Source of the DNA: a virus | Taxonomy: Duplodnaviria; Heunggongvirae; Uroviricota; Caudoviricetes | Virus record (IMG/VR): IMGVR_UViG_2695420380_000015 | Length of the DNA: 39,317 bases | Reading direction: 5' to 3' (one strand) | In this document: one piece after another, positions 2,935 to 25,276 of the stretch | Numbering within the stretch: the stretch's first letter is position 1 | Layout: every line of letters starts with the position of its first letter | Translations under genes and position numbers: made by a program | Notes under the pieces: generated by a model | What the model saw: the letters and a program-made list of their open reading frames with translations, nothing else | Told to the model about the DNA's origin: nothing | The model's database searches: none

Positions 2935-3238
2935 NNNNNNNNNNNNNNNNNNNNNNNNNNNNNNNNNNNNNNNNNNNNNNNNNNNNNNNNNNNNNNNNNN
3001 NNNNNNNNNNNNNNNNNNNNNNNNNNNNNNNNNNNNNNNNNNNNNNNNNNNNNNNNNNNNNNNNNNNNNNNNNNNNNNNNNNNNNNNNNNNNNNNNNNNN
3101 NNNNNNNNNNNNNNNNNNNNNNNNNNNNNNNNNNNNNNNNNNNNNNNNNNNNNNNNNNNNNNNNNNNNNNNNNNNNNNNNNNNNNNNNNNNNNNNNNNNN
3201 NNNNNNNNNNNNNNNNNNNNNNNNNNNNNNNNNNNNNN
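2935..3238. other. Run of N (masked or unsequenced) covering the transposase 3' end and the B 5' end
   Basis: 304 consecutive n characters. Confidence 0.99.
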
Positions 3239-4163
3239 TTATTGATGGCGGCGTACTGACGCAGTATGCCATCGCCAGAGAGGCGGGAATTTCCGACGGC
3301 ACATTATCGGCTTTCCGTAAGGGAAAATATAAAGGCGATAACGCTGCTGTGGCTGNNNNNNNNNNNNNNNNNNNNNNNNNNNNNNNNNTTCCCTGCGCTC
3401 CTGGTATGAGAACTGGAATAAACAAAGCGCACTGCCGGAACCGCCGCAGTTTGTGGAAACTCAGACAGTCCAGGAGCTGCGCGCACTGTTTCAGGCGGTT
3501 CGCCTGATGGGCTGTATTAACGTTATTGTGGGCGTACCGGGTGTGGGTAAAACGGCCACTGCCCGTAATTACTGCCAGGAGCAACCAAACACCTGGATGA
3601 TCACCCTGTCACCCGCGCACTCCAGCGTCACGGAGTGTCTGCTGGAGCTGGCCGATGCGCTGGGGATTGATTACACCCGCGCGAACAAAGGGGCATTATC
3701 CCGCGCCATCCGCCGTCGCCTGATGGGAACGCGTGGACTGGTGATTGTGGATGAGGCGGATCATCTTGGTATTGACGGTCTGGAGCAACTCCGGGCAATT
3801 CAGGACGCCACGGGGATCGGGATGGTGCTTATTGGTAACCCGCGCGGATTGTTTAAAGGTGGACGCCGCGCCTTTGATGATTTATCGCGCCTGTTCAGCC
3901 GTCTTGCCCGTACAAAACAACTTCGCAAGGCCAAAAAGGCGGATGTGCTGGCCATTGCCATGGCGTGGGGGATCAGTGGTGAGGCCGAGCTGGCCGTCAT
4001 GCAGGCTATCGCTGAAAAGCCGGGAGCGTTACGCGTTCTGACACATACGCTTAACCAGGCGTGGCTCACCGCCAGCGGTGAAGGCGCGGCGCTGACAGAA
4101 AAACATATTAATGCGGCCTTTAAAGAGGTTTATACCAACCCTGAATTACTCTCACAGGTGTGA
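3239..4163 (+). CDS. B: MuB-like AAA+ ATPase / transposition target-capture protein; true start is inside the N run, and the gene also crosses the 33-nt N run at 3356-3388
   Basis: Frame-0 reading from 3240 gives an HTH-like N-terminus (QYAIAREAGISDGTLSAFRKGKYKGDN). Walker A GVPGVGKT at 3531-3554. Stop at 4161-4163. Follows A as in Mu. Confidence 0.85.
3356..3388. other. Run of N inside the B gene
   Basis: 33 consecutive n characters. Confidence 0.99.
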
Positions 4164-5210: not shown

Positions 5211-5504
5211 ATGAGCAAAGTACGCGTTATTTTTGAATTTAACCACGTAATGCATGAAGTAAAGCCAGCCGGTAATGATAGTCAGGAAATCACGGAGGGG
5301 GTTACTGCCACTGTAAAAATCGAACGTGATACGGAGAACAGACCGACAGGCCCATGTGATGTTTATGCGCAAATTCTTAAATATCACAGCCCCACAATTA
5401 TTCAGTTTCTGACAGATGAACTTCAGGGTTCCATGCAGGCTCTGGGGGTGAAAAGCAGCATTGAGCGCCGCTCCTTGCAGAACGCACCAGATACATTGCA
5501 ATAA
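5211..5504 (+). CDS. Hypothetical early protein, paralog 2 of a tandem pair (MSKVRVIFEFNHVMHE...)
   Basis: ATG at 5211 inside track ORF 5184..5504. N-terminal motif MSKV-x-IIFE(F/Y) shared with 4934..5206. Confidence 0.5.
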   Translation: MSKVRVIFEFNHVMHEVKPAGNDSQEITEGVTATVKIERDTENRPTGPCDVYAQILKYHSPTIIQFLTDELQGSMQALGVKSSIERRSLQNAPDTLQ

Positions 5505-5515
5505 GGAAAAACAAA

Positions 5516-6046
5516 ATGGCAAAACGCGTTACAAAATTAAAGGCTGTAGCCGAGGCCGCACCGCAGACCCGCGAAGAAGTCAGCCGCGATATCCGCACCC
5601 TGGGCGATATTCAGCGAGAGGCGCTGCGCCTGGAAACGGCGATGAATGATGAAGTGGCAGAAATCACCGCCCGTTATACGCCGCAGATTGAAAATCTTAA
5701 AAAGCAAATCAAAGTGCTTTTTAAAGGGATTCAGGACTGGTGTAAAACCAACCGTGATGAGCTGACGAACGGCGGCAAAACCAAAACTGCCAATCTGACC
5801 ACCGGAACGGTGTCATGGCGGCTGGGAACGCCATCATGCAGCGTCAGCCGTGATGTGGAAGGTGTGATTGACACGCTGCGCCGTATGGGGCTTGAGCGAT
5901 TCATCCGCACGAAAGAGGAAGTGAACAAGGAAGCCGTCCTGGCGGAGCCGGATGCGGTGAAAGGCATTGCCGGTATAAAGGTGAATAAAGGCGCTGAAAG
6001 TTTTTATGTCGAGCCTTTTGAACAGGATGCCGGACTGAATAAATAA
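5516..6046 (+). CDS. gam: Gam-like host-nuclease inhibitor / DNA-end-binding protein
   Basis: 176-aa product with Mu Gam-like blocks (RLETAMNDEVAEITARY, NRDELTNGGKTKTANLTTGTVSWR, ERFIRTKEEVNKEA); RBS AAGGAAAAACAAA. Confidence 0.85.
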   Translation: MAKRVTKLKAVAEAAPQTREEVSRDIRTLGDIQREALRLETAMNDEVAEITARYTPQIENLKKQIKVLFKGIQDWCKTNRDELTNGGKTKTANLTTGTVSWRLGTPSCSVSRDVEGVIDTLRRMGLERFIRTKEEVNKEAVLAEPDAVKGIAGIKVNKGAESFYVEPFEQDAGLNK

Positions 6047-6143
6047 CACCGCATTAATTATTTAAATATCACTTCATTTTAATTATGGCGCTCGCGTCAG
6101 GGGACTGCTTGCGCCTGAAAGCTGAAAATAAGGAATCGGAAAT

Positions 6144-6686
6144 ATGGCATATTTTTATTTCAAATTAGACCGTGTGCAGACAAATAAATATTTCACCAAA
6201 TATCAACAGGCTGTTTTACCGCTACGCAACAGTATTCTTCGGACATTACTGAAAAATACAGGCGCTGCCGGATTGCGCTTAAAGCCGTTCGCCATGGACA
6301 GAATCAGTGAGTTTTATTTTGCCGGTGCTCTGCCTGCGGGCTGGCGTAAGCGCGATGATGTGGCTTTTATCGGTGGCGGACAGTGCTTTATAGCCAGACC
6401 TGATGAGTCATGCCCTGAAGGACCGGCGATTGCCGCAATGATTGAAGCCGCTGAACGCGAGTTAAGAAAGCGTCCTGATTTCCTTGTCTGGCTCTGTGAA
6501 AAGCTGGGGGTAATGAGAATCCCCTCCATGTTTAACACGGACTCCTGGTGGACCCCTTCGTTCTCCCGTGATGCCCTGTGCGTGGTGTTTAAAGTGGGCG
6601 CTTATGGCAGGGAAATAAACGGATGTATTCCTGAAGAATGCCAGGAAATTAAACATTCTGAATATGTGGCGCTGACGGAGGAATAA
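6144..6686 (+). CDS. Hypothetical protein (180 aa)
   Basis: ORF with an AAGGA RBS; no recognisable motif. Confidence 0.45.
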   Translation: MAYFYFKLDRVQTNKYFTKYQQAVLPLRNSILRTLLKNTGAAGLRLKPFAMDRISEFYFAGALPAGWRKRDDVAFIGGGQCFIARPDESCPEGPAIAAMIEAAERELRKRPDFLVWLCEKLGVMRIPSMFNTDSWWTPSFSRDALCVVFKVGAYGREINGCIPEECQEIKHSEYVALTEE

Positions 6687-6689
6687 TTC

Positions 6690-7223
6690 ATGATTGATGC
6701 AAAAGTGCTTGAAGGGGTTAAAAACTGGCTGAGTATTTACGGGCGTCTGACCTGCGGCGTACTGGCTGAAAAAATGAATATGCCGCCATCCTCCATGGTT
6801 TATTTTCTGCGTGATGCGGTTGATGCCGGGGTGCTGACGGAATGTAACGGTTTTTATGATATTCCGCGTCCCCGCCCGGTGCAGCCGATTCGTCGCAAAT
6901 GCAGACAGGAATCTGCGGCTGATGATGTTCAGTGGTGCAGCTTCAGAAAATCCCTGCCATGGATTGAGGGGCATGATATTCCGTCGATGGCGTGGGAATT
7001 TGCTCAGGGCGTTCTGACCTGTGAAACCGTTTATGTGGTGGCTGAAGTTGATGAGCAGGCCATGAAAGAAGGCGTGCCCCAGTTTGTGATGGCGTATATC
7101 GACATTCGCCTGGGTGTCATCATCTGCGGTTTAAGCGGCTGGAATATCACCGCGCGTGTTCTGCGCTACCTGATTGTTGACCGGACAGCAGCGCCTGCCG
7201 GGATATCTGCGGAGGTGGCGTAA
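6690..7223 (+). CDS. Hypothetical protein (177 aa)
   Basis: Tightly packed ORF, 4 nt after the previous stop. Confidence 0.5.
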   Translation: MIDAKVLEGVKNWLSIYGRLTCGVLAEKMNMPPSSMVYFLRDAVDAGVLTECNGFYDIPRPRPVQPIRRKCRQESAADDVQWCSFRKSLPWIEGHDIPSMAWEFAQGVLTCETVYVVAEVDEQAMKEGVPQFVMAYIDIRLGVIICGLSGWNITARVLRYLIVDRTAAPAGISAEVA

Positions 7224-7738
7224 TGTTCTTTAAAACATCAAACCCTTCCGCGCTGGCTGCGTGGCAAAAATACCAGCAGGACTGCCAGACGGTAAAAGAT
7301 GAGGCGAAACGCCTTGAGGCCGTGCTGAATGTTGCGTGCCGGTCGGTATTTGAATTCAGTATCAGTGGTTTTTGTTTTAAGGGACTGCGTTTTACGGAGG
7401 ACAAATATCCTTTTCATCGCGACTTATGGCGAAAACCGACTGCGTCGAATGGCTGGAGCTGCACACCGCGCACATCACGTATCCCTAAAGCCCTGCGTGT
7501 TGCCTCTGATGAACTGAACAGTCTGTGGCGTGAATATTCGCCCGTCACGTATGCCAGAACCGATGCCCTGTTGTTCTGGCTGGGTATTGACTTCTCAGCA
7601 ATATTGTATGGTCCCGTGAACTGGTTCTGCGTTGACAATGTGATTTATCTTCAGTGCGAAGATGATTCCGCAAAACGGAAAATGACCGAAATTCTGTCTG
7701 ATGAGTTTTATGCTGCCGAAAAGCGAGTCAGGGGGTGA
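7223..7738 (+). CDS. Hypothetical protein (171 aa)
   Basis: Start overlaps the previous stop (operon-style coupling). Confidence 0.5.
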   Translation: MFFKTSNPSALAAWQKYQQDCQTVKDEAKRLEAVLNVACRSVFEFSISGFCFKGLRFTEDKYPFHRDLWRKPTASNGWSCTPRTSRIPKALRVASDELNSLWREYSPVTYARTDALLFWLGIDFSAILYGPVNWFCVDNVIYLQCEDDSAKRKMTEILSDEFYAAEKRVRG

Positions 7739-7741
7739 TGT

Positions 7742-8293
7742 ATGATGATTTTACAACACATGGGGCGAAAAGGTCGTACACCCGCTCATGTCCGCGCGTG
7801 GACACCTGAAGAAGATGCGCTACTGATTGCGCTTTATTCATCCACCCCGGTTAAGGATATTGCTGCCAGAATAAAAAGAACTGTCTGGGCTGTATATAAC
7901 CGGACTGGTGTATTGCGCAGTTCATACCCGGAGTTACTGAAATATAAACACCCAAGATTTACACCTGATGAAGATAAGTTTATTCGAAAAAATGCCAGAA
8001 CAATGACCTGCCAGCAAATGGGAGAATATCTCGGACGTAATAAAGATTCTGTCAGATGTCGGGCAGGAATGATTGGTGCTGGATTAACAAAGTGCGGAGA
8101 GTTACGCCCCGGCACGCGCATATCTGATGATGATGTACGTCTTATACGTGCGCTGCGTGATTCCGATTACCCACGCCGTCTGTCATTCCGGGAAATTGGC
8201 GAAAAGTTTGGAATATCTGAACATTCTGCTCACGCAGTTTATTACCGTCGCCGGACTGCCGAGGACGCTGTATTACGGGAGTTAACGCCATGA
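7742..8293 (+). CDS. Hypothetical DNA-binding protein with three tandem Myb/SANT-like HTH repeats
   Basis: Three internally repeated segments of about 45 aa, each with a W/F-T-P-(E/D)-E-D motif followed by helix-like basic stretches (RAWTPEEDALLIALY..., RFTPDEDKFIRKN..., RISDDDVRLIRAL...). Confidence 0.5.
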   Translation: MMILQHMGRKGRTPAHVRAWTPEEDALLIALYSSTPVKDIAARIKRTVWAVYNRTGVLRSSYPELLKYKHPRFTPDEDKFIRKNARTMTCQQMGEYLGRNKDSVRCRAGMIGAGLTKCGELRPGTRISDDDVRLIRALRDSDYPRRLSFREIGEKFGISEHSAHAVYYRRRTAEDAVLRELTP

Positions 8294-8619
8294 TAACGAC
8301 CTTATTTGTTGAATCAGATGAACCTCTTGTGTGTGCCGCCGGAATGCCGCTCTGTGGCGGAACGCTGACCGGTGTTTATTTCGGGGATTTACGCGGTTAT
8401 CCCTGGCATTCACTGAATGATGCTTTCCCACCTGATATGGAGGCTGTCGTGCTGATTGTTCAGTATGGTCACCGTCAGGAGCTGCGCATCGGCCATATGG
8501 GGTATGAAGGCTTTTTTGTTGATGAAGAAACCGGAGCCTGCCTTGAAGATGAAGACGGACAGGTGACGCACTGGTGTCATATTTCGGCTTTACCGGAATT
8601 ACGGGAGGTGAATGCGTGA
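8290..8619 (+). CDS. Hypothetical protein (109 aa)
   Basis: ATGA start/stop overlap with the upstream gene. Confidence 0.45.
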   Translation: MITTLFVESDEPLVCAAGMPLCGGTLTGVYFGDLRGYPWHSLNDAFPPDMEAVVLIVQYGHRQELRIGHMGYEGFFVDEETGACLEDEDGQVTHWCHISALPELREVNA

Positions 8620-8966
8620 GAAGTTATATTGATAATGAAAAGCTGGAGACAATAAGCGACTGTCTTAGCTTGCTGGCAAAAATCAAAGAAACTATTGAAG
8701 AGATTAAATTTCAGCTTGAATACGCACCATGTGGCGATGATGCATGGCGTAATGCTGCCAGAAAAGCACTGGCTGTCTTTCAGAAACAACGCCGGGCTGT
8801 TGAATACCGCCTTGCTGTATTGCGCCAGGAGGAAAAGGAAAGAAATATAAGACGTCATGAACGCGTTAATGATTTCCTTGTTCGTGAATTAAAAGAGCGC
8901 GTGCCGGAGTCGGTATTTTTTGAATGTGAGGCTATAGCCCGTAGCAAAGCACTGGAAACAGATTAA
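8613..8966 (+). CDS. Hypothetical coiled-coil protein (GTG start; track ORF 8574..8966)
   Basis: GTG at 8613 preceded by GGGAGG; AT-rich coding sequence; charged heptad-like composition. Confidence 0.4.
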   Translation, partial: CVRSYIDNEKLETISDCLSLLAKIKETIEEIKFQLEYAPCGDDAWRNAARKALAVFQKQRRAVEYRLAVLRQEEKERNIRRHERVNDFLVRELKERVPESVFFECEAIARSKALETD

Positions 8967-8981
8967 GCAGGCAGGTGAATA

Positions 8982-9290
8982 ATGAGTATTGAATTAAGAT
9001 CGTCTTATGAATATCGCAAAATCCTTATCGCCGGAGGCATGAAACCGGAAGATGCAGAGAAATTCGTTTCTTTTATGGATAAAGAATGTGACAAGCGGGA
9101 TATGCCAGAAATTATTATGGATGACATGATTCTGGATTCAGCCGTGGCGTTAAGTCCGTTATGGATTGTGCATACTCTTGCGGAAATAGCTAAAAGAAGT
9201 GACAAGCAGGCGGCTGTCGCCGCCCTGCGATTACTGGCTGAATTAAGTTGTTCAGTCAATCCCAATACGTTCTTTGACGAACCTGGTTAA
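8982..9290 (+). CDS. Hypothetical protein (102 aa), AT-rich
   Basis: ORF with an RBS; its last 39 nt overlap the 3' end of the convergent minus-strand gene. Confidence 0.4.
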   Translation: MSIELRSSYEYRKILIAGGMKPEDAEKFVSFMDKECDKRDMPEIIMDDMILDSAVALSPLWIVHTLAEIAKRSDKQAAVAALRLLAELSCSVNPNTFFDEPG

Positions 9291-9662
9291 CATTGATTTG
9301 GTAACTTCTTTAATTAGATCAAATGGTGCGTCTGTAAACTCCTTTTTGATTCTTTCAAGGATTGGTTTTTTTCTCAGGGCGTTAGCTAAATCATGCCCCT
9401 GCTGGGTAAGCATAATGGGCGTGTTTCTGAAACCAACGCCCAGAGAATGGAAAAAGAAACCAATATATTTGGGTGTTTCTGACTGCATATCACCATTAAC
9501 AATTGAGCCATTATCAGCGAGAAGCATAAGATGAAAAACTTTTTTATCCTTTTCCTCTCCTTCTGCCTCAGCCATGCCCAGATCCTGTAGTGTAAGGAAA
9601 GGTGTTTCAGCATCCTGAAAAGTTGTGAGAATACTTAATACTTCATCGTAATCTATTTTCAT
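9252..9662 (-). CDS. Hypothetical protein (136 aa) on the opposite strand inside the early operon; AT-rich moron-like insert
   Basis: Only sizeable minus-strand ORF in the early region; visibly AT-enriched codon usage; GC-rich dyad GGCGGC-N8-GCCGCC (about 9686-9705) upstream of its start. Confidence 0.5.
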   Translation of the reverse strand: MKIDYDEVLSILTTFQDAETPFLTLQDLGMAEAEGEEKDKKVFHLMLLADNGSIVNGDMQSETPKYIGFFFHSLGVGFRNTPIMLTQQGHDLANALRKKPILERIKKEFTDAPFDLIKEVTKSMLTRFVKERIGID

Positions 9663-9726
9663 ATCGATACCTTTAGTTTTATCCGGGCGGCGTTGCCATG
9701 CCGCCTGTTGTTACGGAGACACGATA

Positions 9727-10311
9727 ATGAATCGCGCTTCCCTGATTACCTTAATACATGTCGCAAAACGCGATCTACAGCTTGACCATGAGACCTACAC
9801 ATCCGTACTACTGGCAGCCACCGGCAAACCCAGTTGCCGGGATATGTCACCGGATGAGTTATCCCGCGTGCTGGATGTTTTCAAAAAACGCGGTTTTAAA
9901 GTGCGTCAGAAGCCGGTTAACCGGGCCTTAAAACCGGGGACGGTGACCGCCAAAATTCGCGCCATCTGGAAAGTGATGCACCGGCAGGGCTTTATCGCTG
10001 ATGGCGGGGNNNNNNNNNNNNNNNNNNNNNNNNNNNNNNNNNNNNNNNNNNNNNNNNNNNNNNNNNNNNNNNNNNNNNNNNNNNNNNNNNNNNNNNNNNN
10101 NNNNNNNNNNNNNNNNNNNNNNNNNNNNNNNNNNNNNNNNNNNNNNNNNNNNNNNNNNNNNNNNNNNNNNNNNNNNNNGGCCTCTGATGTGCTGGAGCGT
10201 CTCAAACGCTGGCACCGCCGCAAAATGCTGGATGTGCTGGGGATGTCAGCGCGTACAGTGATAAGTTATGAGCGCGTTTGCAGGCTGTATGAAAAATCAT
10301 TCCCCCGTTAA
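9727..10311 (+). CDS. GemA-like (Mu gp16-like) early regulatory protein; interior masked by N run 10010-10178
   Basis: Position immediately upstream of the Mor/C-family gene, and N-terminal sequence (MNRASLITLIHVAKRDLQLDHETY...) typical of Mu-like gp16/GemA proteins as remembered. Confidence 0.6.
   Translation: MNRASLITLIHVAKRDLQLDHETYTSVLLAATGKPSCRDMSPDELSRVLDVFKKRGFKVRQKPVNRALKPGTVTAKIRAIWKVMHRQGFIADGGXXXXXXXXXXXXXXXXXXXXXXXXXXXXXXXXXXXXXXXXXXXXXXXXXXXXXXXXXASDVLERLKRWHRRKMLDVLGMSARTVISYERVCRLYEKSFPR
10010..10178. other. Run of N inside the GemA-like gene
   Basis: 169 consecutive n characters. Confidence 0.99.
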
Positions 10312-10315
10312 CTCC

Positions 10316-10347
10316 AAATCCCGCCACAGCGCGGGATTTTTATTTTA
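10316..10347 (+). terminator. Rho-independent terminator: 9-bp perfect stem AAATCCCGC / GCGGGATTT, 6-nt loop, then TTTTTATTTT
   Basis: Read directly from the sequence, 5 nt after the GemA-like stop; a likely end of the early transcript. Confidence 0.6.
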
Positions 10348-10381
10348 AACTTGCCCTGTGTAATGATGACCGGAGGCGGGT

Positions 10382-10804
10382 ATGGCTGAAACACAGATGA
10401 GCATGTTTGGTGACAGCGAACAGCTGCACGCGCTGATTGACCGTCTGGATGATATTCCTGATGATGAGCTGAAAAAGAACTGGCCCGGCACGCTGCGGGA
10501 CCTGGTTGATGTGATCAGTGCTGAACTGCACCGTCAGGGGATTGAACCTGCTCAGGCGGGAATGCTTGCCCGTAAAGTTGCGGCCGCACAGGCCGGGTAC
10601 ATGGGCGGGCGTGGTTATTATCTCCCGGTCGGTGAATCCCTTTTCACCGAACTGCGCAATAATGAGATTTTTTCCCGCTGGAGCCAGGGCGAAAAAATTG
10701 AAACCCTGCGCCGCCACTACCAGATGTCAGAGACGCAGATTTACTCCGTTATCCGTAACCAGCGCCGCCTGCATCAGGAACGCACGCAGCCCCGGCTTTT
10801 CTGA
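10382..10804 (+). CDS. Mor/C-family transcriptional activator of middle/late genes
   Basis: 140-aa product with an acidic N-terminus and a C-terminal HTH-like region (RRHYQMSETQIYSVIRNQRR), matching Mor/C architecture; sits directly upstream of the lysis genes after a terminator. Confidence 0.75.
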   Translation: MAETQMSMFGDSEQLHALIDRLDDIPDDELKKNWPGTLRDLVDVISAELHRQGIEPAQAGMLARKVAAAQAGYMGGRGYYLPVGESLFTELRNNEIFSRWSQGEKIETLRRHYQMSETQIYSVIRNQRRLHQERTQPRLF

Positions 10805-10875
10805 TATTCCGCAAATCCTGCCCACTTTTTCCCACGGTTACGCTGACTCAGAGAACACCATGAGACAGCGTAACA

Positions 10876-11376
10876 ATGCCAAAACTCCCCGCACCCCTGC
10901 GTAAAAAGCTGATTGCCCTTGTTCTGGCCGGAGCCGGGACGTTCACCATTGCCACGCACTACACCGGCTACTGGGAAGGGAAAGAAAACACCACGTACAT
11001 TGATCCCACCGGCACCCCCACCATCTGTTACGGCCATACCGGCCCGGATGTGAAACCGGGGATGACAAAAACTGATGAAGAGTGTCTGGAGCTGCTGGAA
11101 AAGGACATGAAATGGGCCTTTGCGGCTATCGATCGTCATGTTCAGGTGCCGCTTACCCGTGGTCAGACGGTGGCGTTGGCCTCCTGGATTTTCTGGGCCG
11201 GTGAAACGAACTTTCGCAACTCCACGCTCCTGCGCCTTATCAATGCCGGGCAGATGCCCGCGTCCTGTAAGCAGTATATCCGCTGGATTTATTCAAAGGG
11301 GGTGAAACTCCCCGGTCTTGAGGCCCGCCGTTCGGCGGATGAATGGTTATGTCGTTACGACTTGCCGAAAGTCTGA
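10876..11376 (+). CDS. lys: Endolysin, T4-lysozyme-like muramidase (GH24) with an N-terminal signal-anchor (SAR-type) segment
   Basis: Catalytic triad spacing E-x8-D-x5-T (YWEGKENTTYIDPTGTPT) is present; N-terminal hydrophobic stretch LIALVLAGAGTFTIA. Confidence 0.85.
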   Translation: MPKLPAPLRKKLIALVLAGAGTFTIATHYTGYWEGKENTTYIDPTGTPTICYGHTGPDVKPGMTKTDEECLELLEKDMKWAFAAIDRHVQVPLTRGQTVALASWIFWAGETNFRNSTLLRLINAGQMPASCKQYIRWIYSKGVKLPGLEARRSADEWLCRYDLPKV

Positions 11377-15361: not shown

Positions 15362-16950
15362 TGGGACGCATAATTGATCTTGACGGAAAACCTCTCTCCT
15401 TTGACCCGGAGATGCAGAGTACCGCGCTGGATATTCCGCAGATTGCCAGCCGTTATGTTGAGCATCCCGCCTCGGGTATCACCCCGAACCGGGCGGCGCA
15501 GTGCCTTCGGGGGGCTGAACGTGGCGACCTGATTGCCCAGTCCGATCTGGCGGCTGACATTGAAGAAAAGGACACCCACCTTTTTGCGGAGCTGGGCAAG
15601 CGACGTCTTGCCATTCAGGGGGTGCCATGGAGTATTGAGCCGCCACCGAACGCCAGCGCGAATGAGAAAAAGGACGCGGAAATGCTCGACGAATATCTGC
15701 ATTCCGCAGACTGGTTTGATGCCATGCTGTTTGACGCCACGGATGCCATCCTGAAGGGCTATTCCTGCATGGAAATTGAGCACGGGATGCTCGGTAAAAT
15801 GCACATCATCCGCGCCATCCGCTGGCGTGACAGCGGGCATTTCTGCCTTAACCCGGATGATTTGAGCGAACTGCGGCTGCGTGACGGCAGCCATGCCGGG
15901 GTGGCGTTTCAGCCTTTTGGCTGGATAGTGCATCAGTCACGTTCACGGACCGGTTACGGTGGCGCAACGGGGCTTGTCAGGACGCTTATCTGGCCGTTCA
16001 TTTTCAAAAACTATTCCGTGCGCGATCTGGCCGAATTTCTGGAGGTGTACGGACTGCCGATGAAGGTCGGGAAATACCCGTCCGGGGCAACACCGGAGCA
16101 GAAAAGCGCCCTGATGCGGGCGGTGATGGATATCGGGCGACGTACAGGCGGGATCATCCCGGCCGGGATGTCGCTGGAATTTCAGGCGGCAGCAAACGGT
16201 CAGGCCGATCCATTTGAAACCATGATTTCGTGGGGGGAGCGTTCCATCTCCAAAGCAATACTCGGCGGCACGCTGACCACGGAAGCCGGAGACAAAGGCG
16301 CGCGCTCGCTGGGTGAGGTGCATAACGAGGTGCGCCGGGAAATCAGGGATTCTGATTTACGGCAGCTGGCTGCAACCCTGAACCGCGATCTGGTGTATCC
16401 GCTGTACGCCCTGAACACCACGCACACTATTGATATCCGCCGTCTGCCACGTATCTGCTTCCAGACCAAAGAACCAGGTGATATCACCAAAATCACCAGT
16501 GCGGTGATGCAGCTCAGTACGGGGATGGATATTTCTGATCCCTGGATACGGGAGCAGACCGGTATTCCGCAGCCCACGCCCGGTGAAGCCATATTCCGTG
16601 TCCGTCAGAGTGGCAATGAACCGGCTCAGACCGACAGGGAAACACCACCGGAAAAACAGGAAAAAACAGAGCAGACGGCGCTGTCAGCCAGACTGCCGGA
16701 AGCGAAAAGCACGCCGCGTGATGAACTGGATGATATGGGGGACGCGGTGCCTGCCCGCCGCTTACAGGAGGCCATCGACCCGGTACTGGAGCCGGTCATT
16801 GATGCCATCAGAACGCGGGGGCTGGCGGATGCGCTGGCAGACCTGCCTGCCCTTTATCGTGAAATGGATGATTCCCGCCTGATGACGCTGCTCAGTGATG
16901 CCATGTTCGCTGCGGAAATGAAGGGGATGCTGGATGACACAGGGGATTGA
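15352..16950 (+). CDS. Portal protein (Mu gp29-like)
   Basis: 532-aa ORF overlapping the terminase stop (GTG start); position and size typical of the Mu portal. Confidence 0.8.
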   Translation: MLVVGRIIDLDGKPLSFDPEMQSTALDIPQIASRYVEHPASGITPNRAAQCLRGAERGDLIAQSDLAADIEEKDTHLFAELGKRRLAIQGVPWSIEPPPNASANEKKDAEMLDEYLHSADWFDAMLFDATDAILKGYSCMEIEHGMLGKMHIIRAIRWRDSGHFCLNPDDLSELRLRDGSHAGVAFQPFGWIVHQSRSRTGYGGATGLVRTLIWPFIFKNYSVRDLAEFLEVYGLPMKVGKYPSGATPEQKSALMRAVMDIGRRTGGIIPAGMSLEFQAAANGQADPFETMISWGERSISKAILGGTLTTEAGDKGARSLGEVHNEVRREIRDSDLRQLAATLNRDLVYPLYALNTTHTIDIRRLPRICFQTKEPGDITKITSAVMQLSTGMDISDPWIREQTGIPQPTPGEAIFRVRQSGNEPAQTDRETPPEKQEKTEQTALSARLPEAKSTPRDELDDMGDAVPARRLQEAIDPVLEPVIDAIRTRGLADALADLPALYREMDDSRLMTLLSDAMFAAEMKGMLDDTGD

Positions 16951-18265
16951 TTTAGGTTATGCCGCCACGCTTCCCTCAAAAGAGGCGGTGGCATACTTCC
17001 GCGCCAAAGGGGAGCATATCAGCTGGAACTGGTTCGAAACAGACGCGGATGTTCATGCCCGTTCATTCACGGCGGCAAAAGTGGCACGCCTGGACGTACT
17101 GACCACACTACAGGCGGAAGTGCAGCGTGCTGTTGATGAGGGCATTTCACAGAAAGCATTTATCCGCACGCTGACACCCCGCCTGCAAAAGCTGGGATGG
17201 TGGGGAAAGCAGATTGTGGTGGACAGTGCAGGGAACGCGGAAGAAGTGCAGCTTGGCAGCCCCCGCCGTCTGGCGCTGATTTACAACGTGAACACCCGTG
17301 TGGCTTACAATGCCGGGCGTTACACGCAGATGATGAACAACACGGACACGCATCCGTTCTGGCAGTATGTGGCGGTGATGGACAGCCGCACCCGCCCGGC
17401 ACATTCCGCCCTTAACGGGCTGGTATTCCGCTATGATGATCCGTTCTGGAATACTCACTACCCGCCCAATGGCTGGAACTGTCGCTGCCGTGTGCGGCCA
17501 TTGTCTCAGGCCCGTCTGGATGCAATGGGGTTATCCGTTTCATCCGGTGAGGATCATCTCTCCACCCGCAATGTTGAGGCTGGCGTGGATAAACAGACCG
17601 GAGAAGTCAGAGAAATGCCGGTGACCACATATTCAGATGGCACCAGAACCATGACACCGGATGTGGGCTGGTCATATAACCCCGGCTCGGCAGCGTTCGG
17701 CACAGACCAGGCGCTGATCCGCAAACTGATCGAGGTGAAAAGCCCGGCGTTACGGGAAATGGTGGTTCAGGAGATGAACAACAGCCCGGAGCGGCAGCTG
17801 GCGTTCCGCATCTGGGCAAAAAACATCATGCAGACCCGGCGAGGTGGTAACGATATCCGCACGCTGGGCTTTATGACTGAAAGCATTGCGCAGGCAGTGG
17901 AAAGCCGGACGGGAACGCCACCGGCCCGCCTGCTGGCGATGAGCGGTAAAAATGTGCTCCATGCAGACAGTGTGAAACATCAGAATGACGGCATCGCCCT
18001 GATGCCAGAGGACTTCGGGCGCTTACCGGCAATGCTGGCAAAGCCAAAAGCGGTGCTGTGGGACAAACGGCACAACAATCTGATGTATATCGTGGAAAAT
18101 AAGGATGGCAGTGTGCAGATTGCCGTTAATGCACCGTACAGTCTGAAACGTCAGCCCGACAAACTGGATGTGATTGTGAATGCTTACCGGGTTATCAATA
18201 TGGATAAGCTGAAATCGGATATCCGGGGCGGAATGCTTGAGGTGCTGGAAGGACAAATTGATTAA
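16934..18265 (+). CDS. Head morphogenesis protein (Mu F / gp30-like)
   Basis: 443-aa ORF overlapping the portal gene end; Mu F-like position. Confidence 0.75.
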   Translation: MTQGIDLGYAATLPSKEAVAYFRAKGEHISWNWFETDADVHARSFTAAKVARLDVLTTLQAEVQRAVDEGISQKAFIRTLTPRLQKLGWWGKQIVVDSAGNAEEVQLGSPRRLALIYNVNTRVAYNAGRYTQMMNNTDTHPFWQYVAVMDSRTRPAHSALNGLVFRYDDPFWNTHYPPNGWNCRCRVRPLSQARLDAMGLSVSSGEDHLSTRNVEAGVDKQTGEVREMPVTTYSDGTRTMTPDVGWSYNPGSAAFGTDQALIRKLIEVKSPALREMVVQEMNNSPERQLAFRIWAKNIMQTRRGGNDIRTLGFMTESIAQAVESRTGTPPARLLAMSGKNVLHADSVKHQNDGIALMPEDFGRLPAMLAKPKAVLWDKRHNNLMYIVENKDGSVQIAVNAPYSLKRQPDKLDVIVNAYRVINMDKLKSDIRGGMLEVLEGQID

Positions 18266-18386
18266 CGGTCAGTGGCGGGGGTCGAACCCGCATACATGAT
18301 CCACCCGGAGGCAGGCACCGACTTTACCAGTTAAGCGTACACTGACCGCCTGTTTATTTTATATTCATCTTTTATGCGGAGGCAAT

Positions 18387-18860
18387 ATGTCATCCATTGA
18401 TGCGGCGGTCGTGGTGGACGTTGCGCGTCTCCAGCGGGTCTTTGCCCGGCTTCAGTTTGTGGGAAGCGGAAAAGACCTGGCACGCAGTGTGGCGGAGAGT
18501 CTTCTGTCATCGTCAGAAATGGCATTTGAGCAGGAAAAAGAGCCGGATGGTGAACGCTGGCATGACTGGTCAGATCCTTACCGTGAGTGGCGTACCCGTA
18601 AGGGATACACGCCCGGCAAAATCCTGACGCTGAACGGCGATCTGGCCCGCCGCCTGACCACGGATTATGGCGATACCTGGGCGCTGATTGGATCAAATGA
18701 ACCTTATGCAGCCATTCATCAGTGGGGGGGCCTGCCTGGTATGCCACCGGGACCGGCGGCCATTGGCGCACGTCCGTATATGGGCTTTGATCAGGTGGCA
18801 GAACAGGAGATCATGGACGAAATCAGAAAACGCTTTAAAAAGGCCACAGAAACGCCGTAA
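18387..18860 (+). CDS. Virion morphogenesis protein (Mu G-like)
   Basis: 157-aa ORF with RBS GGAGG; conserved position before the protease/scaffold gene. Confidence 0.7.
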   Translation: MSSIDAAVVVDVARLQRVFARLQFVGSGKDLARSVAESLLSSSEMAFEQEKEPDGERWHDWSDPYREWRTRKGYTPGKILTLNGDLARRLTTDYGDTWALIGSNEPYAAIHQWGGLPGMPPGPAAIGARPYMGFDQVAEQEIMDEIRKRFKKATETP

Positions 18861-19037
18861 TGGTTTAAGGTATACAAACGCATTACCTTACCCTCTTCAG
18901 GCGCGTGTCGTGATTTTCTAACCTGTATTTAACGGGCTTTAAAATCTGCGTGAAGCGCCTTTCTCATTTTTCCCCTGTCAGCACTTTCTGAAGTCCCGCA
19001 AAACCTGCCCCGAAAAACACCGGCTTATGCTGCCGGA

Positions 19038-20162
19038 ATGAAGACGAAAAACACGCCCAAACTTGCTTATGCCATTCTGAATGCCATCAGCCTGTCCGCA
19101 GACGGGGACGGTGACTGGTGTCAGATCATGCCAGCCGGTCGGGTAAAGGCCCGTGACGGTCGCCCGGAAAAACCGGAGGAAGGCTGGCTGATTAACCATG
19201 CGGCCGTTGAGCGTATGGTATCCGGGGTCGTGGCACTCAATCAGCCGGTGAAGATTGACTATAACCACCAGTCACTGATTGAGGGGCATGCGGCACCGGC
19301 TGCCGGTTTTGTCATGGCCTCGCCGGAGAACTTCCGTTTCAGTGAAGAGCGGGGTTTTGAAGTGCGTCCGAAGTGGAACCCTCCGGCCATTGAACACCTG
19401 CGCAATAACGAATTTCCCTGGTTTTCCCCGGTGATTGGTTATGACGAAATCACCGGTGAACCTGTTGAGCTTCGGATGCTGGCTATTACCGGTGACCCCG
19501 GTCTGACTGGCATGAATCCTGTCGCCGCACTGTCGGCGGATGACCTTTATAACGCCTTAAACCCTCCTTTAAAGGACACCTCCATGAATGAGCAATTACG
19601 CCAGTTGCTGACGGCGCTCGGTCTGACCGTGGCCGACGGTGACGAATTTACACCGGAACTGGGCACGGCGGCGCTGTCTGCCCTTACCGGGATCAAAACC
19701 CGTGCGGATGCGCACGACACCCTGAAAACGCAGGTTGCCAGCCTGTCGGCAGAGCTGGAAACCGCAAAAGGCACACCAACTGGCGGCACTATTGATCTGA
19801 CGAAATACGTGCCCGTTGAGACGTATAACGCCCTGCGTACCGAATATGTCGCGCTGTCGGCACAGCACGGCAGCACCACGCTGGAGCAGTTGCTGGATAA
19901 GGCTGAGTCCGAAGGACGCATTTTCAAAAGCGAACGCGGATACATGGAAGGACTCGGACAACAGATTGGCGTTACAGCACTTTCTGCACAGCTTGACGCC
20001 CGCCAGCCGGTTGCGGCTCTGACCACTCTTCAGACCGACACCGTGACCGTGCCGGATAAAAAGACCGCCACTGCTGTGCTGTCGGCTGAAGATATCGCCG
20101 CCGCCCATCTGCTGGGTAAAACCGAAGCCGAGTTCCTGAAAATGAAAGAGGAAATGCAATAA
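19038..20162 (+). CDS. Head maturation protease / scaffold (Mu I-Z-like)
   Basis: 374-aa ORF immediately upstream of the major head gene; acidic, helical C-terminal half typical of a scaffold. Confidence 0.8.
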   Translation: MKTKNTPKLAYAILNAISLSADGDGDWCQIMPAGRVKARDGRPEKPEEGWLINHAAVERMVSGVVALNQPVKIDYNHQSLIEGHAAPAAGFVMASPENFRFSEERGFEVRPKWNPPAIEHLRNNEFPWFSPVIGYDEITGEPVELRMLAITGDPGLTGMNPVAALSADDLYNALNPPLKDTSMNEQLRQLLTALGLTVADGDEFTPELGTAALSALTGIKTRADAHDTLKTQVASLSAELETAKGTPTGGTIDLTKYVPVETYNALRTEYVALSAQHGSTTLEQLLDKAESEGRIFKSERGYMEGLGQQIGVTALSAQLDARQPVAALTTLQTDTVTVPDKKTATAVLSAEDIAAAHLLGKTEAEFLKMKEEMQ

Positions 20163-21109
20163 TGCCTACCCCGATTACACCGGCGATGATCACCGCCCTG
20201 ATGACGGGCTACCGTTCTGATTTTCAGGCCGGGATGTCCATGGCTCCGTCGCAGTACCAGAAAATTGCGATGACCGTACCGTCCACGTCGAAATCCAACA
20301 CCTACGGCTGGCTTGGGCAGTTCCCGCAGTTCCGTGAGTGGATCGGCTCCCGCGTCATCGAGAAGATGAAAGCCTATGGCTACGCCATCGTGAACAAAAC
20401 CTTCGAAGGCACCGTCGCCATTAGCCGCGATGACTTCGAAGACGACAATCTTGGCATCTACTCCCCATTGTTCCAGGAGATGGGGCGCGCTGCGGCGGCA
20501 CAACCGGATGAACTGGTCTTTGCTGCACTGCGTGACGGGATCAGTGCGGCCTGCTATGACGGCCAGAACTTCTTTGATACCGAACACCCGGTTTACCCCA
20601 AAGTGGATGGCTCCGGGGATGCACAGATGGTCAGCAATATGTTTGTGGCAAAAACCGGCTCTGTCGGTGCACAGGCGGATTACAGTGGCCCGGCCTGGTA
20701 TCTGCTCGACTGCTCCCGCGCGGTAAAACCGCTGATTTACCAGGATCGCCGCAAGGCCGAACTGGTTGCCCAGACAAAAGTCGATGAAGGCCGTGCGTTT
20801 ACTGATAACGAGTTTGTGTTCGGTGCTTCCGCCCGTCGCAATGTGGGCTACGGCTTCTGGCAGATGGCCTACATGATGCAGTCACCGCTGACGCTGGATG
20901 CGCTGTGGCACGGCTGGTCAGCCATGCGTGACTTTAAGGCTGACGGTGGCCGCAAACTCGGCATCAAACCCACCCATATTGTTGTCCCCACTTCGCTGGA
21001 AAAACAGGCGGTGCAGCTGCTGGAGCGCGAGCTGTTCGCGGACGGTAACGCCACAGTCTCTAACGAGATGAAGGGCAAGCTGGAGCTGGTTGTCGCGGAT
21101 TATCTGTAA
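20162..21109 (+). CDS. Major head subunit (Mu T-like)
   Basis: 315-aa ORF whose start overlaps the I stop; followed by a GC hairpin; conserved position. Confidence 0.85.
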   Translation: MPTPITPAMITALMTGYRSDFQAGMSMAPSQYQKIAMTVPSTSKSNTYGWLGQFPQFREWIGSRVIEKMKAYGYAIVNKTFEGTVAISRDDFEDDNLGIYSPLFQEMGRAAAAQPDELVFAALRDGISAACYDGQNFFDTEHPVYPKVDGSGDAQMVSNMFVAKTGSVGAQADYSGPAWYLLDCSRAVKPLIYQDRRKAELVAQTKVDEGRAFTDNEFVFGASARRNVGYGFWQMAYMMQSPLTLDALWHGWSAMRDFKADGGRKLGIKPTHIVVPTSLEKQAVQLLERELFADGNATVSNEMKGKLELVVADYL

Positions 21110-21116
21110 ACGGTGA

Positions 21117-21135
21117 GCCGGGCTTACGGCCCGGC
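21117..21135 (+). terminator. GC-rich hairpin (GCCGGGC-ttacg-GCCCGGC) right after the major head gene; possible attenuator or stabiliser, with no U tract
   Basis: Perfect 7-bp stem read from the sequence, 8 nt after the stop codon. Confidence 0.35.
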
Positions 21136-21152
21136 CCCTGCGGAGGGCAAAT

Positions 21153-21512
21153 ATGAATGAACATCACACTGTGGCAGCAACAGATGATTCAGGCCTTCAG
21201 GTCAGTGGTGACAGTCCTGTCACGGTACTGGCAGAAGTGCGTTGCAGTCGTACGCATTTTCGTCGTGCGGGGTTCCTGTTCATGCGGGGACGCCAGCAGG
21301 TTGACGTCACCCCGGAGCAGCTTGCCCGACTGGAAGCGGAGCCATGCCTCACTGTACGAATACTACAGACGCCTGGTGATGATGCGGGAGCCGTGGCGGG
21401 TGTGGTTCATGCAGAGACCGGTGCAGATTTAGCCGAAGCCGAAACCGTACAGGATGCTCCCCGGAAAAAGACCGGCAATAACGCCAGACAGGCAAAAAAG
21501 GCGCGCGCATGA
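21153..21512 (+). CDS. Hypothetical head-associated protein (Mu gp35 position)
   Basis: RBS GGAGGG 6 nt upstream; ATGA overlap with the next gene. The alternative frame 21157..21432 is rejected. Confidence 0.5.
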   Translation: MNEHHTVAATDDSGLQVSGDSPVTVLAEVRCSRTHFRRAGFLFMRGRQQVDVTPEQLARLEAEPCLTVRILQTPGDDAGAVAGVVHAETGADLAEAETVQDAPRKKTGNNARQAKKARA

Positions 21513-21928
21513 ATTACGCCACCGAAACCGATATGCGGGCACGTTACCGCGAGGATTTGCTCAGGCCATTACTGGCCGTGCCCCGTTCGGATGAACCGGA
21601 CACGCGCAAGCTGAACCGGGCACTGACGGACGCGTCTGCCCTTATCGACAGCTATCTGTCTTCCCGTTACACGCTGCCGCTGGCGGTGGTTCCGGCGGTT
21701 CTTGTTCAGCACTGCTGCACGATTGCCTTTTATTACCTGTGCGATCAGCGGGCATCCGATCAGGCGCGTGACCGTTACCGTGAGGCGCTGGCCTGGCTGA
21801 AAGACGTCATGAACGGCAATGTGCCGGTCGGCGTGGATACCGACGGTGCGGCCCCTGAATCCGGGGATTTACCGCAGGTGCAGTCTGATGCGGCGGTGTT
21901 CGGGCGCAACCAGAAGGGCTTTATATGA
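21509..21928 (+). CDS. Head-tail connector / head completion protein (Mu gp36-like)
   Basis: 139-aa ORF in the conserved position, coupled to its neighbours. Confidence 0.6.
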   Translation: MNYATETDMRARYREDLLRPLLAVPRSDEPDTRKLNRALTDASALIDSYLSSRYTLPLAVVPAVLVQHCCTIAFYYLCDQRASDQARDRYREALAWLKDVMNGNVPVGVDTDGAAPESGDLPQVQSDAAVFGRNQKGFI

Positions 21929-22488
21929 TTACGGAAACCGAACAGGCATATATCGCCCGCATCCGTGAGTATTTCGGGAATGAACTGGTGTCTGTTGACA
22001 CCCATCCCGGCGACTGGAGCGACAGCGTGCTGCGCACCATGCTGATTAACGCCCCGGCTATCTATGTTGCCTGGCTGGGTGCCGGTGAAGGGCGTACCCG
22101 TGGGCGTCTGGTCAGTCACTGGGTGTTCTACGTCATCGGCGACATGCTCAATGGCCGTGAGGTCAGCCGTCCGGGACTTTATCAGATTGTGGCCCGCCTG
22201 ATTGCCGTACTGAACGGCTTCAGAACCGAAAAAACCTCACCGCTTTACTTTGAAAAGGCGGTTAACGGTTACACCGAAACGCAGGCCGACAGCGGAGCCG
22301 TGATGTACGCCCTTTATTTCTCATGCGAGGAAATGATCGACCCGCTGACGGATATCAGCTCGCTGGATGATTTCCTGCGCCATTACGAAACCTTCACCGA
22401 ACCGGAAGGCACACCGGAATTTAAGGCGCACATCAGCCTGCCAGGTGCAACCGCCGCCGGTGAAAAAGCCGGACCGTCAGAGGAATAA
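21925..22488 (+). CDS. Virion structural protein (Mu gp37-like)
   Basis: 187-aa ORF in the conserved position. Confidence 0.6.
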   Translation: MITETEQAYIARIREYFGNELVSVDTHPGDWSDSVLRTMLINAPAIYVAWLGAGEGRTRGRLVSHWVFYVIGDMLNGREVSRPGLYQIVARLIAVLNGFRTEKTSPLYFEKAVNGYTETQADSGAVMYALYFSCEEMIDPLTDISSLDDFLRHYETFTEPEGTPEFKAHISLPGATAAGEKAGPSEE

Positions 22489-22491
22489 CAG

Positions 22492-22779
22492 ATGACAACC
22501 ATTTTTATCAAACCCGCGCCGGGATGCCTGATCCGCGATCCGGACACCATGAAACCGCTGGCGCAGGAGGGAGAGGAAAAACCCTTCACCCCGTTCTGGT
22601 GCCGCCGTCTTAATGACGGGGACGTCATTGTGGTGGAAAAAGCGGCTGAAGCAGCACCGGCAGCAGCGTCTGCAACGACTGATGCCGCCGGAAAACCCGC
22701 GGGAGCGGCAGCAGAAAAACCTGCGACTGAAAAACCCGCGACTGAAAAACCCGCAGCATCAGACAAGGGGACGTCCTGA
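22492..22779 (+). CDS. Small protein with Ala/Pro/Glu-rich low-complexity C-terminus (Mu gp38 position)
   Basis: 95-aa ORF; C-terminus contains KPATEKPATEKPA encoded by a tandem 15-bp repeat. Confidence 0.5.
   Translation: MTTIFIKPAPGCLIRDPDTMKPLAQEGEEKPFTPFWCRRLNDGDVIVVEKAAEAAPAAASATTDAAGKPAGAAAEKPATEKPATEKPAASDKGTS
22714..22756 (+). repeat. Tandem 15-bp repeat GAAAAACC(T/C)GCGACT, about 2.9 copies, in frame
   Basis: Read directly from the sequence. Confidence 0.7.
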
Positions 22780-24281: not shown

Positions 24282-24289
24282 GGTAAGGC

Positions 24290-24655
24290 ATGAGCGGAAA
24301 ACAGCATCAGGGCACGGCCACCATCCGTGTGAACGGACAGGAGTACGCCACCCTTGAGGGAGCCACGTTCTCCCCGTCCGGCTTTGAGCGTGAAGTGGTG
24401 AAAGGCGCGAAAGTCTATGGCTATCGTGAGAAACCCCGTGAGGCGACGCTGGACTGTAAATTTCCGGCTGGCGGAGAAGGTTCACCGGCTGCCGATGAAA
24501 TCAACACCTGGACTGCGGTCACGATTGAGTTCGTGGCCGATACCGGTGAAGTCCATATGATGACGAAGGCCTGGAGCAGTGAACCGGCCTCGCTTGACGG
24601 TGGCGGTGATATCTCCGCGAAGTTCGCCAGCGCCACCAGTACCCGTGTCCAGTAA
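24290..24655 (+). CDS. Tail tube protein (Mu M-like)
   Basis: 121-aa ORF directly after the sheath gene. Confidence 0.75.
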   Translation: MSGKQHQGTATIRVNGQEYATLEGATFSPSGFEREVVKGAKVYGYREKPREATLDCKFPAGGEGSPAADEINTWTAVTIEFVADTGEVHMMTKAWSSEPASLDGGGDISAKFASATSTRVQ

Positions 24656-24669
24656 TCAGGAAAAATGCA

Positions 24670-25149
24670 ATGACCACACGTAAGAAAAAAACGGCGGTTT
24701 CTGACGAGGCCGTGATGGAGGCTATCCGGGATGTACTTGAAGACGGCGATCCCCGCACCGCCGGGCTGGCTGAACAGCTGGCGAACGGCTATGTGGATCT
24801 GCTCGACGGTCTGCCGTTCGGGGAATCCCGTGAATACCGCGTCACCTTCCGCGAACTGACGGCGAAAGACAGCATTGACGCGGAAACCGAGGCCGAGCGT
24901 CTTATGGAAACCCGAAATGGCGGCCCGGTTCTGATAGCCTCGCCGGCACTGCGCGGCATTGCACTGCTGCGCCGTCAGATTGCCGCTGTTGGCCAGATTG
25001 AGGGGCCATTGTCTCCGCGTCAGATCGGACAGCTCAGCGAGCGCGATCTCTCCCGTCTGATGGCGGCGGTAAGCCTGCTTGATTCCGCGATGGCAGGAAA
25101 GCTGGTCGCTGAACGGGGGCGACCAGATGCAGTGCCGGGATCAGATTGA
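24670..25149 (+). CDS. Tail assembly chaperone-like protein (Mu gp41 position)
   Basis: 159-aa acidic protein between the tube and tape-measure genes. Confidence 0.55.
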   Translation: MTTRKKKTAVSDEAVMEAIRDVLEDGDPRTAGLAEQLANGYVDLLDGLPFGESREYRVTFRELTAKDSIDAETEAERLMETRNGGPVLIASPALRGIALLRRQIAAVGQIEGPLSPRQIGQLSERDLSRLMAAVSLLDSAMAGKLVAERGRPDAVPGSD

Positions 25150-25273: not shown

Positions 25274-25276
25274 CCC

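Follow-up and report, generated by a model that had tools for sequence, protein, structure and literature searches.

Gene block and three-repeat protein

We analyzed a block of five consecutive genes at positions 6144–8619 of a 39,317-nucleotide stretch of Caudoviricetes DNA (IMG/VR record IMGVR_UViG_2695420380_000015; "the window" below always means this whole stretch), with emphasis on the fourth gene of the block (7742–8293, + strand). This gene encodes a basic protein of 183 amino acids (aa) that belongs to the D5/gp9 family (PHROG 323) and is built of three tandem helix-turn-helix (HTH) units resembling those of Myb proteins and the DNA-binding domain (DBD) of GcrA; it is here referred to as the Myb-like gene. 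From the c repressor to com/mom, the window makes up an essentially complete Mu-like prophage. Its segment 6000–9700 is 100% identical to the chromosome of Escherichia coli JKHS016, and 233 of the 5426 complete E. coli genomes have related segments. A scan of the genome contigs returned a single locus. The five open reading frames (ORFs) lie on the + strand directly 3' of gam, at exactly the coordinates given in the first-pass annotation, and all of them are annotated RefSeq coding sequences in the JKHS016 prophage.

The five ORFs are tightly spaced, with 3-nt gaps or ATGA overlaps, and a GGGGG Shine-Dalgarno sequence precedes position 7742. A scan of 5400–10900 found no promoter- or terminator-like site in the gaps between the ORFs of the block, and over the whole scanned region such sites were not more frequent than in shuffled sequence. 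Because of this packing and the lack of such sites in the gaps, we read the block as part of the early polycistronic operon. The gene order is kept with respect to Mu, namely gam-(DUF5420)-gp11-gp12-...-gemA-mor/C, and the best explanation of the block is an accessory ("semi-essential early") segment of a Mu-like prophage that is co-transcribed with the early operon.

The three HTH units and the tail of the 183-aa protein are all encoded on the + strand. Unit 1 (aa 19–62, positions 7796–7927) opens with W20-TPEED and has helices at 22–32, 37–44 and 48–61. Unit 2 (aa 72–112, 7955–8077) opens with F73-TPDED and has helices at 75–84, 90–97 and 101–110. Unit 3 (aa 126–170, 8117–8251) is divergent, with R-I-S-D-D-D in place of the signature and helices at 129–140, 149–156 and 160–169. 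It is followed by a short tail (8252–8290) with the motif R-x-T-A-x-D-A-x-x-R-E-L-L-P and a helix at 173–181, which is conserved in 38 orthologues. The W/F-TP-(E/D)-ED signature that had been ascribed to all three units is thus matched exactly by units 1 and 2, whereas unit 3 has a degenerate version of it.

In single-sequence self-alignment the repeats are faint, with z of 3.2 for unit 1 against unit 2 and 2.0 and -0.2 for the others, so profiles were needed to see them. With a profile of 12 sequences, hhalign aligned units 1 and 2 at a probability of 97% (E 2.5e-11), and with the 38 orthologues this rose to 98.9% (E 3e-17). On the same 38 orthologues, units 2 and 3 were aligned at 93% (E 3e-7) and units 1 and 3 at 85.5% (E 6e-6). 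Units 2 and 3 align in register, F73-T-P-D-E-D with I127-S-D-D-D, and unit 3 carries a 5-residue insertion. The AlphaFold2 model (predicted local distance difference test score, pLDDT, 78.7) likewise consists of three 3-helix bundles (22–61, 75–110 and 129–169) and a C-terminal helix, with a predicted template modelling score of 0.45 that leaves the geometry between units unfixed. The three internal repeats of the first-pass annotation are therefore confirmed and well beyond chance, although the self-alignment proposed as their check bears this out clearly with profiles and only faintly with the single sequence. The protein is very basic, with an isoelectric point of 10.0 and a net charge of +13, which is in line with the DNA-binding regulator that had been proposed for this gene.

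The kind of HTH was then judged from profiles and folds. The best fold matches are the GcrA DBD, SANT and c-Myb. PF00249 (Myb_DNA-binding) matches at E 1.7e-5 and 25.2 bits, just above its cut-off of 24.4, a marginal match whose best stretch covers only residues 19–33; PF13921 stays under its cut-off of 22.9 with 17.5 bits. A profile search of the Protein Data Bank (PDB) aligned c-Myb R2R3 in register over units 1–2 (E 1.7e-4), and relatives such as P0026 match PF00249 at E 2e-41. Myb/SANT domains are bundles of three helices and about 50 residues in which helices 2 and 3 form the HTH, and the units of the model agree with this fold. The core of a Myb repeat is formed by three regularly spaced tryptophans (or aromatics). 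In the window protein, an aromatic stands only at the first of these positions (W20 and F73, with I127 in unit 3), and the second and third are aliphatic (I40/V51-type) in all orthologues, so that the three-tryptophan pattern is not present. Compared with the eukaryotic c-Myb R2R3/SANT repeats, unit 3 is nearer to generic bacterial HTHs, and the protein itself comes from a prokaryotic virus.

Unit 3 has sub-threshold matches to AsnC-type HTHs (E 7e-4, 19.8 bits against a cut-off of 27, in this unit only), HTH_10 and sigma region 4. The sigma-70 region 4 profiles (PF04545/PF08281), a family put forward alongside Myb/SANT, were not matched above the cut-off, PF04545 reaching only E 0.14 and 12.1 bits against 24.1, and sigma factors surface only as generic HTH fold matches. 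Pfam GcrA (PF07750) gave no match for the window protein at E<=1, and it is the fold of one unit alone that resembles the GcrA DBD; multi-repeat relatives match Pfam GcrA at E 2.6e-8. The most fitting description of the units is that of prokaryotic Myb/GcrA-DBD-like HTHs. RefSeq names the window protein "SANT/Myb-like DNA-binding domain-containing protein", and gives the name "AsnC family protein" to a 72%-identical allele and to Salmonella orthologues (P0002, P0004 and relatives). The latter name is a misnomer, since the protein consists of three HTH units and a tail with no RAM/AsnC_trans_reg ligand-binding domain, and since the AsnC-type HTH is sub-threshold and confined to unit 3.

Relatives, constraint and genomic contexts

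The window protein matches PHROG 323 ("transcriptional regulator, D5-like") at E 5.8e-52, with residues 5–182 aligned to profile positions 82–256 of 319. The same PHROG contains T5 D5 (T5.118, YP_006946.1; E 1.2e-71) and Mu gp9 (Mup09, E8; 99 aa; E 5e-29). The three HTH units align with D5: residues 18–170 are collinear with D5 72–231 (hhalign 95.8%, E 8e-9) in an alignment that takes in the W-TPE and F-TPD signatures, and both proteins are expressed early. Their identity is only about 25%, and the window protein has no counterpart to the first 70 or so residues of D5 or to its Ala/Lys-rich C-terminal tail. D5 also comes from a virulent phage, while the window gene is found in a temperate transposable phage, within a dispensable accessory region. 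According to the T5 record, D5 binds DNA, is needed for replication and late transcription, and takes part in early shut-off, a role that is attributed to McCorquodale 1979 in a passage of PMC12630848.

Mu gp9, encoded in the same early operon of a Mu-type phage, aligns to units 2 and 3 (hhalign 97%, E 4e-11). With two units instead of three, it has neither the N-terminal motif nor the C-terminal tail, and its gene lies upstream of gam rather than after gp12. Pairwise BLAST of the 183-aa protein against the Mu proteins gave no significant counterpart, and gp9 was revealed only by profile comparison; in the window, BLASTP of the five small ORFs that precede gam detected nothing like gp9. Our literature search found no functional study on Mu gp9, gp11, gp12, Myb-like phage proteins or "D5-like", and a paper on DRT4/ORF55 appeared, from a part of its text, unrelated.

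An exhaustive profile search collected 8170 cluster representatives at E<=1e-3. Many of them carry long tandem arrays, with 4–11 matched stretches in proteins of 300–1340 aa (P0023, P0026, P0031 and others), and some are helicase fusions, for example one in which about nine copies of the unit are joined to a ResIII/Helicase_C helicase. The T5 origin-binding protein T5.108 is annotated in like manner, as a SANT/Myb domain with a helicase domain. Related units are found in HNH-endonuclease PHROGs (phrog_1891, E 1.7e-3), and the archaeal CRISPR-repeat-binding proteins Cbp1/Cbp2 (PDB 2lvs) are also among the closest known systems. Myb-like units also lie inside a split C5 DNA methylase of Mycobacterium phage Bombitas (gp109-gp110; L030, 2004–3887). 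There, gp109 carries the methylase motifs to about profile position 172, then Myb-like units and about 200 further residues, and gp110 is the C-terminal end of the methylase; in related phages the insert is annotated as an HNH endonuclease. Since PHROG 323 is large, D5 aligns over all three units and Mu itself has gp9, the architecture is, contrary to the earlier claim, unusual neither among phages nor in Mu. It is real, and PGAP and PHROGs had already catalogued it.

The orthologues of about 180 aa share 28–97% identity, a fixed length and conserved termini (n=38). This subfamily has the N-terminal motif L-x-P-M-G-x-P-G-x-C-P-A-H-x-R-x-W, a K-C-G-D linker and the tail described above, and helices 1 and 2 of unit 3 read D-D-D-V-x-L-I-R-x-L-R-D / F-R-E-I-G-E-K-F. 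By weighted entropy, the most conserved parts are these two helices, the second linker and the tail. In each of the three units, helix 3 combines conserved buried positions with hypervariable exposed ones, at 2.8–3.7 bits of entropy, and is flanked by conserved arginines (R46, R54, R99 and R170). A zinc site at the N-terminal "CPAH" motif was considered and rejected, as the Cys is replaced by Thr in the window protein.

The same contrast is seen between two E. coli alleles (WP_000973019.1 and the one labelled "AsnC family protein"), which are 72% identical in protein sequence, while the flanking genes of their prophages are 88–98% identical. The ratio of nonsynonymous to synonymous substitution rates (omega, dN/dS) between them is 0.10 in helices 1 and 2, 0.75–0.96 in the three helix-3 segments and 0.25 elsewhere in the protein, with a uniform dS of about 0.6. 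Helix 3 holds amino-acid differences at 21 of its 34 positions, against 31 of 149 elsewhere (Fisher p 9e-6). The ORF at 7742–8293 is thus a real gene under selection. The hypervariable exposed face suggests that target specificity may differ between alleles; a putative common partner or common structural role is suggested by the conservation of unit 3 and the C-terminal tail. The helix-3 pattern would fit diversification of DNA-recognition faces, and it would fit relaxed constraint equally well because omega there stays below 1.

The Myb-like gene was found in several kinds of temperate phage. In E. coli and Salmonella Mu-like prophages it stays after gp12, or in one case directly after gp11, and a more distant Mu-like phage has it between gam and gemA. 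The orthologue of P2/186-like prophages comes after a D12 N6-adenine methyltransferase gene, directly or with one small ORF between, and is translationally coupled to replication gene A, overlapping it in some; in others a gene for a 3'-phosphoadenosine-5'-phosphosulfate (PAPS)-reductase-like protein or a C5-methyltransferase comes next, and then A (L017, 4698–6520; L019, 5060–7544; L021, 4993–7471; L031, 3646–5540). One further P2-like contig has the Myb-like gene upstream of gene A, with no methyltransferase recorded. Lambdoid/Rac-like prophages have it in the early-left position, adjoining Lar and Ash/pRha genes or near exonuclease VIII. In a phage contig from a metagenome (ERR12726268; L033, 4653–9596), a 36%-identical orthologue is followed by a Tad2-like (anti-Thoeris family) gene, and the operon further on contains a Phage_Mu_Gp12 homologue and a weak Acb2/Tad1-hairpin gene. 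This gp12 homologue indicates that gp12, too, travels outside Mu-like phages, there in an apparent anti-defence island. A dATP/dGTP pyrophosphohydrolase gene is also among the neighbours of the Myb-like gene. Given these differing backgrounds, the Myb-like gene is a single-gene cassette moving between unrelated temperate phages. In every context it sits in the early operon, often amid DNA-modification or anti-defence genes.

Neighbouring genes and late region

The gene upstream of the block, gam (5516–6046, +), encodes a host-nuclease inhibitor with 57% identity to Mu Gam (PF07352, E 7e-42; phrog_491, E 5e-69). The first-pass annotation found no recognizable function in any of the five ORFs that follow. 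For the four other than the Myb-like gene, no function could indeed be assigned by Pfam, PHROGs, NCBIfam, PADLOC or the PDB: NCBIfam and PADLOC gave no match for any of the five, and sequence and profile searches of the PDB found no relatives of the four. Three of them can nevertheless be recognized, as homologues of Mu gp11 (67%) and gp12 (52%) and as a divergent DUF5420 protein.

The last of these is the 180-aa product of 6144–6686 (+), which matches phrog_2260 at E 2e-73 and has no counterpart in Mu. It matches DUF5420 (PF17457) directly at E 0.18 only, and over its full length it is 29–36% identical (E 1e-16 to 4e-33) to the ORFs that occupy the corresponding place in Mu-like prophages of Salmonella. 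Two such Salmonella ORFs, 29 and 28% identical to it, carry PF17457, and we therefore regard it as a divergent member of DUF5420/phrog_2260. The likeness seen by eye between its N- and C-terminal motifs and those of gp12 had raised the idea that the two are paralogues, which found no support (BLAST E 0.9; hhalign 0.3%).

The gp11 homologue (6690–7223, +; 177 aa) is 67% identical to Mup11 and matches Pfam Gp11_C at E 5e-40. Its predicted structure is poor (pLDDT 58.8) and usable only for a resemblance of the N-terminal part to winged-helix domains; the protein probably consists of an N-terminal winged-helix domain, a linker and Gp11_C. Three cysteines (C22, C83 and C111) are invariant in 16 gp11 homologues, and C52 is invariant too in an alignment of five. 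A DNA-binding role linked to metal or redox chemistry is conceivable for this protein. The gp12 homologue (7223–7738, +; 171 aa; Phage_Mu_Gp12 family) is 52% identical to Mup12 and matches phrog_2314 at E 1.5e-80, and PF26885 is present in its positional homologues. The last ORF of the block (8290–8619, +; 109 aa; phrog_6925) has a start that overlaps the stop of the Myb-like gene (ATGA). Its product is 82–86% identical in prophages whose Myb-like protein is only 51–63% identical, and the gene is absent from several prophages with the second allele (allele B); it is an orphan.

Between the early accessory genes and gp16, a DUF2513-like gene lies at 9252–9662 on the - strand (PF10711, E 6.6e-5, below the Pfam cut-off; phrog_585). 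It has the place and orientation of Mu gp15, with no sequence similarity to gp15 detected. Directly after gp16/GemA there is a strong hairpin resembling an intrinsic terminator (10316–10339, +), AAATCCCGC...GCGGGATTT followed by TTATTTT. It precedes the sole Mor/C-family gene in the examined stretch (10382–10804), whose product is 40% identical to Mu C and 28% to Mu Mor, and a lysozyme gene comes immediately next. A one-activator cascade may thus replace, in the window phage, the Mor-then-C cascade of Mu. The late region is intact in the window. The JKHS016 prophage (NZ_CP147059.1), near-identical in other respects, lacks 16825–19940 and 27586–32047 and has 19941–25942 in inverted orientation, and a number of its late genes carry annotations as truncated pseudogenes. 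In the window, masked runs of N at 2935–3238, 3356–3388 and 10010–10178 break up the gp16 (GemA) gene and the transposase/B region, so that these ORFs are not fully readable.

Possible roles and significance

Taken together, we favour, with moderate confidence, the reading that the 183-aa protein is a multi-HTH DNA-binding accessory protein of the D5/gp9 family and a dispensable modulator of early lytic DNA transactions. It builds on the family, repeats, fold, charge, operon position, constraint pattern and mobility described above, and we infer from the sequence DNA binding, site specificity and a biological role of this kind. A monomer-sized, very basic protein with three tandem three-helix units and a short conserved tail would bind double-stranded DNA (dsDNA) with helix 3 of each unit in successive major grooves, like c-Myb R2R3, and each unit would thereby extend a single long, asymmetric target site by a few base pairs. 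Helix 3 would thus provide the DNA contacts, and the conserved unit 3 and tail would serve a common role. Early in the lytic cycle, the protein could in this way modulate replication and/or transcription, the kind of role described for D5. The host-takeover factor suggested in the first-pass annotation is possible as well.

Several points weigh against this reading. DNA binding is described for T5 D5 alone, and for the window protein and Mu gp9 it is presumptive. A search by Foldseek with the whole model found nothing at E<0.1, because the geometry between the units is undefined, and each unit keeps only the first of the three canonical Myb aromatics. Orthologues of a sequence-specific HTH protein usually vary least in the recognition helix, and here it is the least conserved part, with omega below 1; relaxed constraint, through non-specific binding or an unimportant surface, fits this as well as diversifying specificity does. 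A gene that moves freely among unrelated phages is unlikely to regulate phage-specific promoters. Finally, the most conserved surfaces are not those of helix 3 and could point to a protein partner instead of DNA. The HTH units might then be SANT-like scaffolds for a host or phage protein, with no specific DNA binding, an explanation that we regard as improbable: the net charge of +13 and the conserved arginines flanking helix 3 are typical of contacts to the DNA backbone, and D5, the characterized relative, binds dsDNA. It is highly improbable, and already disfavoured, that the protein is a functionless remnant of a DNA-binding module of a homing endonuclease or methyltransferase. Related units do occur in the HNH-endonuclease PHROGs and within the split C5 methylase of Mycobacterium phages, but the helix cores are under strong purifying selection, the length and termini are kept over all 38 orthologues, and the region is present in the 233 E. 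coli genomes mentioned above.

The neighbourhood of the gene raises a further explanation, that it is a component of counter-defence islands, either as an Aca-like HTH regulator of adjacent genes or as a factor itself directed against a host defence or locus. Typical anti-defence or anti-restriction neighbours recur in independent phage backgrounds: gam in Mu-like phages; in P2-like ones, genes for D12 N6-adenine methyltransferase, C5 methyltransferase or a PAPS-reductase-like protein; and further Lar restriction alleviation, the dATP/dGTP pyrophosphohydrolase gene, or a Tad2-like gene directly downstream with an Acb2/Tad1-like one further on. The gene also changes singly from one phage type to another (Mu-like, P2-like, lambdoid), and exists as two sharply different alleles in prophages that are otherwise closely similar. 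All of this is guilt by association, however, and many genes with no relation to one another are found in early accessory regions. The Myb-like gene has no conserved partner that moves with it, omega in helix 3 is not above 1, and PADLOC gave no match, in a search that did not extend to anti-defence families. We thus consider this explanation rather unlikely.

GcrA offers another comparison. It binds DNA in a methylation-dependent manner and is a cofactor of sigma-70 (PMC3667746, PMC4647560), and in a GcrA-like role one or more of the units would read DNA, possibly marked with N6-methyladenine, and RNA polymerase or sigma-70 would be contacted by the conserved unit 3 and tail, with transcription biased toward methylated phage or host promoters. 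The GcrA DBD is the best structural match, the multi-repeat relatives match Pfam GcrA, the gene follows a Dam-type methyltransferase in the P2/186-like prophages, and the layout of a variable DNA-reading face and a conserved C-terminal module is of this type. In contrast, Caulobacter GcrA (PDB 5yiu) has a single DBD and a C-terminal domain that interacts with sigma-70, and the window protein has no direct match to Pfam GcrA. This role seems distinctly unlikely. A broader and likewise doubtful proposal is a portable "programmable reader", in which the rapidly diversifying recognition faces of three HTH units would be combined with one conserved effector module (unit 3 and tail) and would spread together with DNA-modification and anti-defence genes. 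The protein might then act as a methylation-sensitive sigma cofactor like GcrA, or as a specificity factor or regulator in counter-defence; its alleles would track different DNA targets, and the gene would spread singly among Mu-like, P2/186-like and lambdoid prophages.

These findings do not overturn current understanding. Three of them are new relative to the existing annotation, namely the hypervariability of the exposed face of helix 3 beside a conserved unit 3 and tail, the mobility of the gene across Mu-like, P2/186-like and lambdoid prophages, and its frequent adjacency to DNA methyltransferase, Lar or Tad2-like genes. In addition, a database label is corrected, as the 72% allele should not be called "AsnC family protein". 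For decades, the early accessory genes of Mu-type phages have largely been a black box. The D5/gp9 assignment provides a testable hypothesis for one of them, a multi-HTH DNA binder that would affect replication or transcription, and this hypothesis applies to Mu gp9 too. The constraint pattern supplies targets for mutagenesis, the hypervariable helix-3 faces on one side and the conserved unit 3 and tail on the other, and the adjacency to methyltransferase, Lar and Tad2-like genes flags early segments of this kind as places to seek counter-defence functions. If the "programmable reader" proposal were true, the protein would represent a new class of phage accessory regulator and not a generic D5-like DNA binder.

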